A DNA stretch of 10,793 nt from a virus: UHGV virus genome UHGV-0166775; one strand, written 5' to 3'. The notes beneath the pieces are model-generated. The model ran no database searches, was not told where the DNA came from, and saw only the letters and a list, made by a program, of their open reading frames with translations. This document shows positions 2,521 to 10,793 of this stretch, piece by piece. The position numbers were made by a program, and so were the translations under genes. Each line of letters opens with the position of its first letter. Position 1 is the first letter of the stretch.

Positions 2521-2843
2521 ACATACTAATGACAATAGCTGCTATTGATGTAAATGCAATGTTATGCATCGACGAAAATAAAAAACCGGCAGGGGAAATC
2601 CATTGAAGACTTGCCGGTGGCAAAAGTTGCCAATGCTTTTATAACCGTAGTCACAGAGTTACGAAGTGCAACACCGAATGCTGCTGGTATATGGATGAAT
2701 GGCGTTTCAATGATGTGCATCATTCAAATCACAAATAGTATTGATACTTATTCTCGGTTTTGCGGGTCCTTTCCGGTGATCCGGCAGGCTACGGGGCGGC
2801 GACCTCGCGGGTTTTCGCTATTTACGAGTTTTTTTGAGGTGAT

Positions 2844-2852
2844 GGTTGTTGT
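2844..2852 (+). repeat. cosB repeat 1 (GGTTGTTGT), candidate small-terminase binding element
   Basis: 9-bp core ggttgttgt, about 39 bp downstream of the cosN overhang. Confidence 0.4.
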
Positions 2853-2902
2853 TTTATCGTTTGATATATCTACTTGATAAGTAATAAGAAAGAAAAATAA
2901 AC

Positions 2903-2911
2903 ACAACAACC
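2903..2911 (-). repeat. cosB repeat 2 (GGTTGTTGT on minus strand; inverted)
   Basis: Plus-strand acaacaacc is the reverse complement of the core. Flanks resemble the other copies (ggttgttgtgtt on minus). Confidence 0.4.
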
Positions 2912-2968
2912 TGATGATCTTTCTTATACGAAAAAGCATGTAAAATCAGAGGGTTTTACAAAAAACGT

Positions 2969-2977
2969 GGTTGTTGT
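2969..2977 (+). repeat. cosB repeat 3 (GGTTGTTGT), immediately upstream of Nu1 start
   Basis: Third copy of the same 9-mer in direct orientation. Arrangement direct-inverted-direct between cosN and the Nu1 start is reminiscent of lambda R3/R2/R1. Confidence 0.4.
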
Positions 2978-3010
2978 ATTGCTTTTTTGCCGGTGGTTTA
3001 TGGAGGGGCT

Positions 3011-3488
3011 GTGGCCTTTTTATTGAATAAAAGCGACATGGCCTCCTCCATCGGTATCTCAGTACAGGCATTTGATAAATGGGGTGTTCCTCCTGTTGAG
3101 CGCCGGGGGAGAGAGGTTTTCTATGACGTTAAAACTGTACTGGAGATAGATCGCGAGCGACGTCAACAAAACCAGAAATCTTCAGGTGGTGAAAATGATC
3201 TTGAGGAAAGGCTACTTCAGGCCAGGGTTAACCTGACGGAAGAACAGGCTATTGCTCAGCGGTTAAAAAACCAGGTTGCAGAGCATAAGGTGATTGATAC
3301 AGCTTTCTCTATTTTTGCCCTGTCCCGGTTATCCGGAGAACTGGCATCTGTTTTGGACAGTATTCCGCTTTCGATGCAAAGAAAATTCCCTGAATTGACA
3401 GGCAGACAATTGGCTTATCTAAAAGAGCTGGTTGCGAAGGGGGCTAATAAATGCGTTGAGTCCGCTGAAAAAATGAAGGAATTTGCGG

Positions 3489-3517
<29 letters not shown>
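3011..3517 (+). CDS. nu1: Terminase small subunit (Nu1-like), divergent N-terminal wHTH domain
   Basis: ORF track 2987..3517 (TTG). I favour GTG 3011 because of the SD ggagg at 3002-3006; the start is uncertain. NKSDMASSIGISVQAFDKW aligns with lambda Nu1 NKKQLADIFGASIRTIQNW. The middle DTAFSIFALSRLSGELASVLDSIPLSMQRKFPEL is close to lambda ETAFCTFVLSRIAGEIASILDGLPLSVQRRFPEL. The C-terminal ~35 residues are unlike lambda. Confidence 0.8.
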
Positions 3518-7195
<3,678 letters not shown>

Positions 7196-7215
<20 letters not shown>

Positions 7216-8515
7216 TCTCCCGCATATTGCCAGCATGGCCTTTAATGAGCCGCTGATGCTTGAACCCGCCTATGCGCGGGTTTTCTTTTGTGCGCTAGCA
7301 GGCCAGCTTGGGATCAGCCGCCTGACAAATGCGGTGTCCGGTGACAGCCTGACTGCCCCGGAGACACCCGCGACGCTGGCGTTATCCGGTGATGATGACG
7401 GACCACGACAGGCCCGCAGTTATCAGGTCATGAACGGCATCGCCGTGCTGCCGGTGTCCGGCACGCTGGTCAGCCGGACGCGGGCGCTGCAGCCGTATTC
7501 GGGGATGACCGGTTACAACGGCATTATCGCCCGTCTGCAACAGGCTGCCAGCGATCCGATGGTGGACGGCATTCTGCTCGATATGGACACGCCCGGCGGG
7601 ATGGTGGCGGGGGCATTTGACTGCGCTGACATCATCGCCCGTGTGCGTGACATAAAACCGGTATGGGCGCTTGCCAACGACATGAACTGCAGTGCAGGTC
7701 AGTTGCTTGCCAGTGCCGCTTCCCGGCGTCTGGTCACGCAGACCGCCCGGACAGGCTCCATCGGCGTCATGATGGCTCACAGTAATTACGGTGCTGCGCT
7801 GGAGAAACAGGGCGTGGAAATCACGCTGATTTACAGCGGCAGCCATAAGGTGGATGGCAACCCCTACAGCCATCTTCCGGATGACGTCCGGGAAACACTG
7901 CAGTCCCGGATGGATGCAACCCGCCGGATGTTTGCGCAGAAAGTGTCGGCATATACCGGCCTGTCTGTGCAGGCTGTGCTGGATACCGAGGCTGCAGTGT
8001 ACAGCGGTCAGGAGGCCATTGATGCCGGACTGGCTGATGAACTTGTTAACAGTACCGATGCGATCACCGTCATGCGTGATGCACTGGATACACGTAAATC
8101 CCGTCTCTCAGGAGGGCGAATGACCAAAGAGACTCAAACAACAACTGTTTCAGCCACTGCTTCGCAGGCTGACGTTACTGACGTGGTGCCAGCGACGGAG
8201 GGCGAAAACGCCAGCGCTGCGCAGCCGGACGTGAACGCGCAGATCACCGCAGCGGTTGCGGCAGAAAACAGCCGCATTATGGGGATCCTCAACTGTGAGG
8301 AGGCTCACGGACGCGAAGAACAGGCATGCGTGCTGGCCGAAACCCCCGGTATGATCGTGGAAACGGCCCGCCGTATTCTGGCCGCAGCACCACAGAGTGC
8401 ACAGGCGCGCAGTGACACTGCGCTGGATCGTCTGATGCAGGGGGCACCGGCGCCGCTGGCTGCAGGTAACCCGGCATCTGATGCCGTTAACGATTTGCTG
8501 AACACACCAGTGTAA
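7196..8515 (+). CDS. C: Prohead protease / minor capsid protein gpC
   Basis: ORF track 7061..8515 is an upstream in-frame extension. The lambda-equivalent start is GTG 7196 (VTAELRNLPHIASMAFNEPLMLEP...), overlapping the 3' end of B by 20 nt exactly as in lambda. 439 aa. Confidence 0.9.
7910..8515 (+). CDS. nu3: Scaffolding protein Nu3 (in-frame internal start within C)
   Basis: ATG 7910 is in frame with C, 714 nt into it, the same offset as lambda Nu3 within C. Begins MDATRRMFAQKV. Confidence 0.75.
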   Translation: MDATRRMFAQKVSAYTGLSVQAVLDTEAAVYSGQEAIDAGLADELVNSTDAITVMRDALDTRKSRLSGGRMTKETQTTTVSATASQADVTDVVPATEGENASAAQPDVNAQITAAVAAENSRIMGILNCEEAHGREEQACVLAETPGMIVETARRILAAAPQSAQARSDTALDRLMQGAPAPLAAGNPASDAVNDLLNTPV

Positions 8516-8524
8516 GGGATGTTT

Positions 8525-8857
8525 ATGACGAGCAAAGAAACCTTTACCCATTACCAGCCGCTGGGCAACAGTGACCCGGCTCATACCGCAACCGCGCCCG
8601 GCGTATTGAGTGCGAAAGCGCCTGCAATGACCCCGCTGATGCTGGACACCTCCACCCGTAAGCTGGTTGCGTGGGATGGCACAACCGACGGTGCTGCCGT
8701 TGGCATTCTTGCAGTTGCTGCTGACCAGACCAGCACCACACTGACGTTCTACAAGTCCGGCACGTTCCGTTATGAGGATGTGCTCTGGCCGGAGGCTGCC
8801 AGCGACGAGACGAAAAAACGGACCGCGTTTGCCGGAACGGCAATCAGCATCGTTTAA
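8525..8857 (+). CDS. D: Head decoration protein gpD
   Basis: 110 aa from the second ATG ([26 protein letters not shown]...), near-identical to lambda D. ORF track start 8519 adds two residues. Confidence 0.93.
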
Positions 8858-8874
8858 CTTTACCCTTCATCACT

Positions 8875-8899
8875 AAAGGCCGCCTGTGCGGCTTTTTTT
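8875..8899 (+). terminator. Terminator-like GC hairpin plus T7 tract between D and E
   Basis: Stem gccgc (8879-8883) / gcggc (8888-8892), loop ctgt, followed by ttttttt (8893-8899). The a-t pairs a8875-a8877 with t8894-t8896 could extend the stem. Confidence 0.45.
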
Positions 8900-8912
8900 A
8901 CGGGATTTTTTT

Positions 8913-9938
8913 ATGTCGATGTACACAACCGCCCAGCTGCTGGCGGCAAATGAGCAGAAATTTAAGTTTGATCCGCTATTTCTGCGTCTCTTTTTCCGTG
9001 AGAGCTATCCCTTCACTACGGAGAAAGTCTATCTCTCACAAATTCCGGGACTGGTAAACATGGCGCTGTACGTTTCGCCGATTGTTTCCGGTGAGGTTAT
9101 CCGTTCCCGTGGCGGCTCCACCTCTGAATTTACGCCGGGATATGTCAAACCCAAGCATGAAGTGAATCCGCAGATGACCCTGCGTCGCCTGCCGGATGAA
9201 GATCCGCAGAATCTGGCGGACCCGGCTTACCGCCGCCGTCGCATCATCATGCAGAACATGCGTGACGAAGAGCTGGCCATTGCTCAGGTCGAAGAGATGC
9301 AGGCAGTTTCTGCCGTGCTTAAGGGCAAATACACCATGACCGGTGAAGCCTTCGATCCGGTTGAGGTGGATATGGGCCGCAGTGAGGAGAATAACATCAC
9401 GCAGTCCGGCGGCACGGAGTGGAGCAAGCGTGACAAGTCCACGTATGACCCGACCGACGATATCGAAGCCTACGCGCTGAACGCCAGCGGTGTGGTGAAT
9501 ATCATCGTGTTCGATCCGAAAGGCTGGGCGCTGTTCCGTTCCTTCAAAGCCGTCAGGGAGAAGCTGGATACCCGTCGTGGCTCTCATTCCGAGCTGGAGA
9601 CAGCGGTGAAAGACCTGGGTAAAGCGGTGTCTTATAAGGGAATGTATGGCGATGTGGCCATCGTCGTGTATTCCGGACAGTACGTGGAAAACGGCGTCAA
9701 AAAGAACTTCCTGCCGGACAACACGATGGTGCTGGGGAACACTCAGGCACGCGGTCTGCGCACCTATGGCTGCATTCAGGATGCGGACGCACAGCGCGAA
9801 GGCATTAACGCCTCTGCCCGTTACCCGAAAAACTGGGTGACCACCGGCGATCCGGCGCGTGAGTTCACCATGATTCAGTCAGCACCGCTGATGCTGCTGG
9901 CTGACCCTGATGAGTTCGTGTCCGTACAACTGGCGTAA
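8913..9938 (+). CDS. E: Major capsid protein gpE
   Basis: 341 aa from ATG 8913 (MSMYTTAQLLAANEQKFKFDPLFLRLFFRESYPF...), near-identical to lambda E. ORF track start 8886 is an upstream GTG extension. Confidence 0.95.
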   Translation: MSMYTTAQLLAANEQKFKFDPLFLRLFFRESYPFTTEKVYLSQIPGLVNMALYVSPIVSGEVIRSRGGSTSEFTPGYVKPKHEVNPQMTLRRLPDEDPQNLADPAYRRRRIIMQNMRDEELAIAQVEEMQAVSAVLKGKYTMTGEAFDPVEVDMGRSEENNITQSGGTEWSKRDKSTYDPTDDIEAYALNASGVVNIIVFDPKGWALFRSFKAVREKLDTRRGSHSELETAVKDLGKAVSYKGMYGDVAIVVYSGQYVENGVKKNFLPDNTMVLGNTQARGLRTYGCIQDADAQREGINASARYPKNWVTTGDPAREFTMIQSAPLMLLADPDEFVSVQLA

Positions 9939-9979
9939 TCATGGCCCTTCGGGGCCATTGTTTCTCTGTGGAGGAGTCC

Positions 9980-10378
9980 ATGACGAAAGATGAACTGATT
10001 GCCCGTCTCCGCTCGCTGGGTGAACAACTGAACCGTGATGTCAGCCTGACGGGGACGAAAGAAGAACTGGCGCTCCGTGTGGCAGAGCTGGAAGAGGAGC
10101 TTGATGACACGGATGAAACTTCCGGTCAGGACACCCCTCTCAGCCGGGAAAATGTGCTGACCGGACATGAAAATGAGGTGGGATCAGCGCAGCCGGATAC
10201 CGTGATTCTGGATACGTCTGAACTGGTCACGGTCGTGGCACTGGTGAAGCTGCATACTGATGCACTTCACGCCACGCGGGATGAACCTGTGGCATTTGTG
10301 CTGCCGGGAACGGCGTTTCGTGTCTCTGCCGGTGTGGCAGCCGAAATGACAGAGCGCGGCCTGGCCAGAATGCAATAA
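9980..10378 (+). CDS. FI: DNA packaging / head assembly protein gpFI
   Basis: 132 aa from ATG 9980 (MTKDELIARLRSLGEQLNRDVSLTG...) with SD gaggag at 9971-9976. Matches lambda FI from memory. Confidence 0.93.
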   Translation: MTKDELIARLRSLGEQLNRDVSLTGTKEELALRVAELEEELDDTDETSGQDTPLSRENVLTGHENEVGSAQPDTVILDTSELVTVVALVKLHTDALHATRDEPVAFVLPGTAFRVSAGVAAEMTERGLARMQ

Positions 10379-10389
10379 CGGGAGGCGCT

Positions 10390-10743
10390 GTGGCTGATTT
10401 CGATAACCTGTTCGATGCTGCCATTGCCCGCGCCGATGAAACGATACGCGGGTACATGGGAACGTCAGCCACCATGACATCCGGTGAGCAGTCAGGTGCG
10501 GTGATACGTGGTGTTTTTGATGACCCTGAAAATATCAGCTATGCCGGACAGGGCGTGCGCGTTGAAGGCTCCAGCCCGTCCCTGTTTGTCCGGACTGATG
10601 AGGTGCGGCAGCTGCGGCGTGGAGACACGCTGACCATCGGTGAGGAAAATTTCTGGGTAGATCGGGTTTCGCCGGATGATGGCGGAAGTTGTCATCTCTG
10701 GCTTGGACGGGGCGTACCGCCTGCCGTTAACCGTCGCCGCTGA
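10390..10743 (+). CDS. FII: Head-tail connector protein gpFII
   Basis: 117 aa, GTG start after SD ggagg (10381-10385). MADFDNLFDAAIARADETIRGYMGTSAT..., near-identical to lambda FII. Confidence 0.93.
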   Translation: MADFDNLFDAAIARADETIRGYMGTSATMTSGEQSGAVIRGVFDDPENISYAGQGVRVEGSSPSLFVRTDEVRQLRRGDTLTIGEENFWVDRVSPDDGGSCHLWLGRGVPPAVNRRR

Positions 10744-10754
10744 AAGGGGGATGT

Positions 10755-10793
10755 ATGGCCATAAAAGGTCTTGAGCAGGCCGTTGAAAACCTC
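10755..10793 (+). CDS. Z: Tail protein gpZ, 5' fragment truncated by window end
   Basis: ATG 10755 preceded by SD aaggggga. MAIKGLEQAVENL matches the lambda Z N-terminus. Only 13 codons are inside the window. Confidence 0.85.
   Translation, partial: MAIKGLEQAVENL

Follow-up and report, generated by a model that had tools for sequence, protein, structure and literature searches.

The virus genome UHGV-0166775 was analysed over its whole stretch of 10,793 nucleotides (hereafter, the window), which contains a cohesive-end (cos) packaging site followed by terminase and head genes. We propose that the window very probably belongs to a lambda-like Escherichia coli prophage that is a natural recombinant: lambda cosQ and cosN on one side, and the lambda body of the large terminase subunit (TerL, gpA in lambda) with the head genes on the other, enclose a 738-bp specificity cassette of N15/Monarch type from a foreign lineage. 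The replaced block is continuous and comprises cosB, the entire gene for the small terminase subunit (TerS, Nu1 in lambda) and the first ~26 codons of TerL. Matches to lambda and lambda-like E. coli phages cover most of the window, and prophages in complete E. coli chromosomes are 99.8-100% identical to it.

A sharply bounded replacement between cosN and the TerL body

Comparison with lambda using BLASTN divided the cos-terminase region into three parts. Positions 2759-2827, which include cosQ and cosN, match at 94.2% identity, and positions 3566-10793, from about codon 27 of gpA to the head genes, match at 98.46% without a gap, the mismatches numbering 111. Between them lie 738 bp (2828-3565) that gave no BLASTN match to lambda and reached 51% identity (386/752) in a forced global alignment. 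Read base by base in register, near-perfect identity stops at 2827, which is nt 34 from the cosN nick, with no similarity further on; past the right junction, identity to lambda is 97-100% per 30-nt bin, and the change from 98.5% to 51% takes place within ~12 bp. Base composition follows the same division, with a G+C content of 32.8% in cosB, 44.6% in TerS and 54.1% in TerL (lambda Nu1, 53.1%), and the step from 44.6% to 54.1% falls at the right junction. The block is confirmed as a real module replacement with sharp edges; scattered point mutations, the outcome that the initial annotation had named as fatal to its proposal of a swapped module, were not what the alignment revealed.

That annotation had drawn the module at 2826-3060, a span that covers only cosB and 17 TerS codons, whereas the module reaches ~3565, some 500 bp further. 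It had listed cosB, the Nu1 N-terminal domain, the Nu1 tail and the start of gpA as the differing parts. All of these do differ, but the list was too short, because the middle of Nu1 has also been replaced (38-54% amino acid identity to lambda and no nucleotide match). Its description of cosQ and cosN as lambda-like holds, and its estimate that gpA becomes lambda-like from about residue 30 was nearly exact, the actual point being ~27, after which 610 of 615 residues are identical.

The left flank has the features of a lambda-type cos: a 12-nt 5' cohesive end (GGGCGGCGACCT, 2794-2805) identical to that of lambda in register, flanking CG, and a 7-bp cosQ ~24-30 bp upstream (Table 1). The role of cosQ as the termination signal for packaging is known from lambda (PMC4669245), and its sequence is unchanged in five diverged relatives. 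Across the cosQ-cosN island only three single bases differ from lambda, at 2784, 2789 and 2825.

Both edges of the block fall at functional boundaries, as had been suggested. The left junction lies between cosN and the R3 box of cosB, and the right junction is the exact transition, seen throughout the family, from a hypervariable TerL 5' segment to TerL sequence conserved at ~75-80%. Family-wide, the first 90 nt of TerL show 43-59% mean pairwise nucleotide identity, against mostly 71-85% beyond them (one 30-nt bin, 64%). The exchange most likely occurred by homologous recombination in the conserved flanks, which consist of cosN plus ~20 bp to the left of the block and of TerL codons ~28-65 to its right. 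Recombination there would move the variable segment as a unit, which would largely explain why mosaic and functional boundaries agree. Which way the swap went cannot be told, because lambda-likeness is confined to the right of about TerL codon 27 and the lysis cassette differs from that of lambda.

Table 1 Features of the cos-terminase region in the window
Feature	Position	Strand	Basis or remark
cosQ, packaging termination signal, GGGTCCT	2764-2770	+	identical to lambda bp 48473-48479 in nick register
cosN nicking site	2792-2807	+	identical to lambda and phage 21
Left mosaic junction, cosN/cosB boundary	2825-2828 (lambda nt 32-35)	.	ungapped register against lambda
R3 box GGTTGTTGTTTT	2844-2855 (nt 51-62 from nick)	+	exact GGTTGTTGT; predicted main TerS binding site
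Candidate IHF site I1 TATCAAGTAGATA	2867-2879 (nt 74-86 from nick)	-	1 mismatch to WATCARNNNNTTR
R2 box GGTTGTTGTGTT, inverted	2900-2911 (nt 107-118 from nick)	-	same coordinates as lambda R2
R1 box GGTTGTTGTATT	2969-2980 (nt 176-187 from nick)	+	core invariant in relatives
TerS (Nu1 family), 168 amino acids, GTG start	3011-3517	+	RefSeq annotation of identical prophage
TerS winged helix-turn-helix DNA-binding domain, residues ~1-60	3011-3190	+	39/59 identical to N15 gp1, 18/58 to lambda
TerS recognition helix SVQAFDKW	~3059-3082	+	identical in N15
TerS C-terminal predicted TerL-binding tail, class A	3425-3517	+	6/27 identical to lambda
Non-lambda TerL 5' end, residues 1-26, predicted TerS-docking segment	3489-3565	+	11/26 identical to lambda
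Right mosaic junction	3566-3579 (TerL codons 26-30)	.	BLASTN and base-by-base register
Lambda-type gpA body, ATPase and nuclease domains	3566-5414	+	610/615 residues (27-641) identical to lambda

The chimera is an established lineage under purifying selection. It occurs exactly, with both junctions each time, in 22 of 5,426 complete E. coli genomes, and all 22 full-length copies have the same lambda-type TerL; the exact module joined to a non-lambda TerL was not found in E. coli. Counting module matches of any extent raises the number to 227 of the 5,426 genomes. Some 205 further genomes match part of the module, and those examined are of O121 type, in which cosB and the 5' portion of TerS are ~79% identical. 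Against a ~3%-diverged copy (96.7% identical), which differs on both sides of the right junction, the ratio of nonsynonymous to synonymous divergence (dN/dS) is 0.06 in TerS; in TerL it is 0.08, calculated over the first 200 codons. Set against an O121-type copy, the DNA-binding domain has a dN/dS of 0.08 at a synonymous divergence (dS) of 0.49. The closest full-length TerS relatives are merely 80% identical, and near and distant DNA searches of 50,697 phage records gave no donor phage for the module, the matches being limited to the cosQ-cosN island and N15 gene 1. Left of cosQ the 22 copies vary, with matches beginning at 2700, ~2741 or ~2760.

One further, defective copy of the module is what remains of a decaying prophage of the same type. 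In E. coli MEI7BO1-21 (L006), TerS breaks off near residue 107, where it is fused to a TerL truncated at its 5' end, and the locus continues with truncated tail genes beside tRNA-Ser.

cosB boxes, TerS and predicted packaging specificity

Three copies of one 9-mer mark cosB. Against an expectation of 0.11, the window contains three exact matches to GGTTGTTGT, all within cosB, at 2844 (+), 2903 (-) and 2969 (+); three copies were reached in none of 200 shuffles. The extended boxes read GGTTGTTGTNTT. They form a tripartite cosB with R3, an inverted R2 and R1, and the lambda sequence has R3, I1 and R2 at the same positions as R3, the candidate I1 and R2 of the window. The corresponding annotations in phage 21 are R3 at 50-65, I1 at 74-86, inverted R2 at 107-122 and R1 at 150-166, compared with nt 51-62, 74-86, 107-118 and 176-187 in the window. 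A search of the TerS gene (3011-3517) for an internal rR2 copy gave no further box at up to two mismatches.

Between R3 and R2 lies a candidate site for integration host factor (IHF), whose strand and position (nt 74-86) equal those of the I1 annotated in phage 21 and of the lambda sequence. A second match to the IHF consensus with one mismatch adjoins it on the minus strand (2854-2866). The evidence for the candidate is its position and its conservation. We aligned cosB from the window, the 96.7%-identical E. coli copy and three ~79% copies (E. coli O121 RM8352, E. albertii and Escherichia sp.), and found the three box cores and the I1 candidate invariant, with spacers that vary. R3-I1-R2 spacing is fixed between window-type and O121-type cosB (L007, L015 and L016), and the R2-R1 spacer (2912-2968) differs between them by 12 bp, made up of a 10-bp block and two single bases. 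That difference is about one helical turn. The same spacer holds a conserved IHF-like match, AATCAGAGGGTTT, at 2944-2956. Twelve IMG/VR contigs carry the same R3 region, always internally, and are uninformative on the real DNA ends.

The TerS gene starts with a GTG that aligns with the ATG of its relatives and is preceded by GGAGGGG at 3002-3008. Its product matches the Pfam family Phage_Nu1 (PF07471) over residues 6-148 with 77 bits, against a cut-off of 30, and is 37% identical to lambda Nu1 overall; by segment, from N- to C-terminus, the identities are 18/58, 17/45, 19/35 and 6/27. An AlphaFold2 model built on a 47-sequence alignment has a mean predicted local distance difference test score (pLDDT) of 83. 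In it, residues 4-55 form a short strand, two helices, a beta hairpin and a helix (pLDDT ~80), followed by long helices, in agreement with the three-domain layout of lambda TerS (PMC9026076). A sequence search of the PDB with TerS returned only non-significant hits, with 1J9I and 6HN7 at E = 0.5-0.9, and the fold is assigned on the basis of family membership.

Among the 50,697 phage records, N15 is the only phage with DNA similarity inside the block, over a 128-bp stretch of gene 1 (74%) in the part that encodes the DNA-binding domain. The two systems share the R-box core, the recognition helix, a lambda-like cos family and DNA-binding domains that are 63-66% identical. N15 R3 is GGTTGTTGTT at bp 50-59, and the window has GGTTGTTGTT at nt 51-60; scrambling bp 54-59 in N15 lowers yield ~100-fold (PMC4669245). 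The two also differ. N15 has a simple cosB, with R3 only and a remote rR2 in gene 1, where the window has three boxes; its cohesive end is GGGCGGCGTCCG, where the window has that of lambda; and both the C-terminal part of its TerS (63/77) and its TerL N-terminus are of lambda class, where both are class A in the window. N15 gp1 (L002) is itself chimeric, joining a Monarch-type DNA-binding domain (36% identical to lambda) to a lambda-class C-terminal part.

A closer counterpart has been described. As summarized in PMC4669245, Feiss et al. (2015) distinguished N15-like prophages, with a simple cosB and a remote rR2 inside the TerS gene, from a Monarch group with the N15 recognition helix and R3, a lambda-like tripartite cosB, an IHF site and no rR2. 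All four features described for the Monarch group are present in the window (the IHF site as a candidate), a comparison made with the published description. The excerpted description makes no mention of a lambda-type TerL body joined at about codon 27, or of a class-A TerS tail. By contrast, a prophage of Trabulsiella guamensis (L017) shows the simple N15 layout, its inverted box lying ~200 bp downstream. Because the window shares its boxes and recognition helix with N15, we predict from the sequence that the packaging specificity is that of the N15/Monarch group, and not that of lambda or phage 21.

How the parts might work together can be modelled on lambda (PMC4669245, PMC9026076), and it is by this analogy that we infer DNA binding, IHF bending, the TerS-TerL contact and the actual specificity. 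The cassette would be self-consistent, its tripartite cosB, complete TerS and first ~26 TerL codons coming from another lineage of the same family. TerS dimers would bind the GGTTGTTGT boxes through their winged helix-turn-helix domains, with R3 and R2 bridged over an IHF bend at I1 and R1 as an accessory. The TerS C-terminal tail, to which TerL binding is ascribed from lambda (PMC9026076), would hold the matching N-terminal segment of TerL and so place the lambda-type nuclease on cosN to make nicks staggered by 12 nt. The complex would then dock on the portal, the lambda-type ATPase would package DNA into lambda-type proheads, and at the next cos, cosQ and cosN would end packaging. Both enzymatic domains are recognized by Pfam in TerL, as GpA_ATPase (PF05876) and GpA_nuclease (PF20454).

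Laboratory phages of similar design exist. In lambda N15hy4 and lambda-21hy51 from the Feiss laboratory, a ~600-bp left-end segment of a lambda genome, with cosB and the 5' part of TerS, was swapped to alter packaging specificity and the lambda TerL kept. Their crossover lies within the TerS gene, so that the TerS tail and the TerL N-terminus remain lambda-type. The crossover in the window, unlike theirs, lies at about TerL codon 27, so that TerS was exchanged whole, along with its docking partner. Phage 21, which with lambda forms the classical pair of packaging specificities, also resembles the window: its cosQ and cosN equal those of lambda, and its cosB, TerS and TerL N-terminus differ. 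Its TerL body, however, is ~73% identical to lambda, meaning that the whole terminase has diverged, and its box sequence and recognition helix differ from those of the window.

Reassortment among related loci and competing explanations

We compared loci drawn from TerS homologues, their genomic contexts and a scan of one genome per species. The N15/Monarch DNA-binding domain was found with three kinds of TerS C-terminal part: lambda class in N15 itself (residues 91-168, 63/77 identical to lambda), class B (...GANQCARAGDKLPDLLDEYIR...) in prophages of O121, E. albertii and Escherichia sp., and class A in the window and Pluralibacter gergoviae. Conversely, the PhiR12_2-type DNA-binding domain, which goes with CATGTCCGGTT boxes, is joined to class B in PhiR12_2; prophages of Citrobacter and Enterobacter combine it with class A. 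DNA-binding-domain types thus combine with several tail classes, that is, they reassort freely.

The pairing of TerS tail and TerL N-terminus follows the opposite pattern. In all 49 loci the tail class and the TerL N-terminus class correspond one to one: lambda tails with NISNSQV…RPEPQTA, class B tails with NISEQQLNNMM… and class A tails with (S/N/T)ITE.Q(M/L).N(F/L)…MT(P/A). The class A tail of Pluralibacter, Citrobacter and Enterobacter prophages always has the matching TerL N-terminus, and TerL residues 1-26 of the window are identical at 22 of 26 positions to those of the Citrobacter prophage L010, which has the same tail class. The co-variation of the specificity parts that the initial annotation had expected is borne out for this pair: among 26 non-redundant loci, the tail and the TerL N-terminus are correlated in their pairwise identities with a Mantel r of 0.92 (p = 5e-4), and with a partial r of 0.91 when the TerL body is controlled for, whereas the TerL N-terminus correlates with its own body at r = 0.62. 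Such co-variation, read from sequence comparison, is compatible with a functional interface and is no proof of one. In other class-A loci the TerL bodies are merely 87-92% identical to lambda, against 99% in the window, and the window lineage is therefore the discordant, recombinant combination.

Two side observations concern the compared loci. PhiR12_2 (L005), Citrobacter L010 and Enterobacter kobei L012 share a DNA-binding type, MATQ(T/V)EVA..L.LT(D/E)RQLRRLQKLPG, and tripartite boxes with the core ATGTCCGGTT, like but unequal to the CATGTCGG boxes of phage 21; this type may represent another packaging specificity. Lambda Nu1 and A sequences also turned up in assemblies of unrelated organisms, namely Bradyrhizobium, Kitasatospora, Paenibacillus, Oceanobacillus, Shewanella, Pseudomonas and others (L021, L033, L035-L039, L041, L043, L047, L048, L051, L052, L056-L060, L062-L065). 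They are identical to lambda where translated, often lie on ~48.4-kb contigs or tiny low-coverage contigs, and look like contamination with control or spike-in DNA.

Other origins for the block were weighed against an exchange of modules. Divergence in place, by point mutation under diversifying selection, could account for proteins that are still homologous to those of lambda (TerS, 37%; TerL N-terminus, 11/26) and for a TerL 5' end that evolves fast family-wide. A fall in identity from 98.5% to 51% in ~12 bp is, however, incompatible with gradual change, G+C content is ~9 points lower inside the block, and the same TerS halves are otherwise combined in Klebsiella, Citrobacter, Pluralibacter and E. 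albertii. The abrupt drop and the recombined halves effectively refute this explanation, and we regard it as very improbable. Phage-inducible chromosomal islands (PICIs), satellites whose cos would divert a helper terminase to a non-phage cosB, do have a lambda-like cosN beside an unrelated cosB in the same position (PMC9026076). Here TerS, TerL, portal, protease, decoration, capsid and FI/FII genes follow directly, no Rpp-like gene is present and the boxes fit the TerS type of the element itself. A satellite cos, contradicted by this complete terminase and head set, was rejected as having next to no likelihood.

Two further explanations accept the exchange and dispute its outcome. The module could be related to N15 and yet have a new specificity of its own, with no cross-packaging with either N15 or lambda, stemming from the three-box architecture, from residues that differ in the wing and linker and from an R3 displaced by 1 bp. 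The DNA-binding domain matches N15 at only 39/59 residues, the flanks of the offset R3 core differ (GGTTGTTGTTTT versus GGTTGTTGTTTA in N15), and the specificities of lambda and phage 21 hinge on single residues and base pairs (PMC4669245). We nevertheless consider this unlikely: SVQAFDKW is identical, as is the 10-bp core that is mutationally critical in N15, cosN-R3 spacing shifts of 1-2 bp are tolerated in lambda (PMC4669245), and Feiss et al. predicted shared specificity for exactly such an arrangement. The chimera could instead be a dead relic, in which the junction created a mismatched, inactive terminase in decaying prophage DNA, as might be suspected from a TerS found in no isolated phage, a related copy that is a deletion remnant and a frameshifted gene in the nearby lysis region of the identical RefSeq prophage. 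Against decay, TerS, TerL and all head open reading frames are intact, 7.2 kb aligns to lambda without a gap, dN/dS is 0.06-0.08 across the junction with dS of ~0.1 since the chimera formed, and the boxes are invariant. The TerS tail and the TerL N-terminus were also transferred together, so that the interface is not mismatched. A relic is accordingly a decidedly improbable reading.

Several observations nonetheless count against a functional recombinant of N15/Monarch specificity, which we continue to favour. IHF-consensus matches are not significant by count, with 16 in the window and 12.9 expected, and R3 lies 1 bp away from its N15 position. A Foldseek search with the TerS model gave no significant match, the best being MerR-like at E > 0.1. 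No isolated phage among the 50,697 records has a TerS more than 50% identical; with a spanin-like gene upstream marked as frameshifted in its identical RefSeq counterpart, the prophage may also fall short of full competence. Linkage of the TerS tail with the TerL N-terminus, finally, is partly expected from adjacency alone, without functional constraint, because the two genes adjoin with an overlap of 29 nt.

Gene context and what the chimera may mean

Gene order was taken from the identical prophage annotated in RefSeq, that of E. coli 357900. Its left part contains holins, a GH108 endolysin, bor and a DUF1398 gene; next come the small terminase subunit (3011-3517) and the large terminase subunit (3489-5414), and then W, portal, protease/scaffold, D, E, FI and FII. 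Outside the cos-terminase region, lambda matches 1262-2352 at 82-86% identity (BLASTN). The gene annotated as frameshifted lies at 940-1222, after the GH108 endolysin in a spanin-like position, and the lysis cassette may be compromised. Positions 2353-2723, which separate the DUF1398 gene from cosQ, have no lambda match and are unannotated in RefSeq; they contain short open reading frames of 53-60 amino acids on the minus strand and two copies of AAAAAACCGG (2451-2460 and 2581-2590). A scan for promoters and terminators around cos yielded nothing useful.

Current understanding of these enzymes is not overturned. Both the type of specificity and the modular build of terminases in the lambda family have been described before, and the chimera is a natural counterpart of existing laboratory hybrids of the same design, which served to map the terminase specificity domains. 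What may be new is a natural lambda-TerL chimera that crosses over at about codon 27, the pairing of class-A tail and TerL N-terminus, and a two-module, combinatorial picture of the family. The exchange point, at about TerL codon 27, suggests that TerL is matched to its TerS by a determinant situated in its first ~26-29 residues. N15/Monarch-type recognition elements are not rare, given the 227 E. coli genomes with a module match.

Tentatively, and with more doubt than confidence, we propose that packaging specificity consists of two independently exchangeable locks, that ~26 N-terminal residues suffice to re-match a lambda TerL and that an N15-like asymmetry might be inherited with the module. 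One lock may be formed by the cosB boxes and the TerS DNA-binding domain; the other may be formed by the TerS C-terminal part and the first ~26-29 TerL residues, in at least four classes (lambda, phage 21, B and A). If this is true, the chimera shows that ~26 TerL residues are enough for pairing with a foreign TerS. N15 packages lambda-specific DNA and is itself invisible to lambda terminase; the prophage might share that asymmetry, which, if so, could benefit a phage in hosts with several lambdoid prophages. DNA-recognition and subunit-docking modules that reassort separately could guide the engineering of packaging specificity, and the two-module scheme could help to forecast cross-packaging and interference between co-resident prophages.

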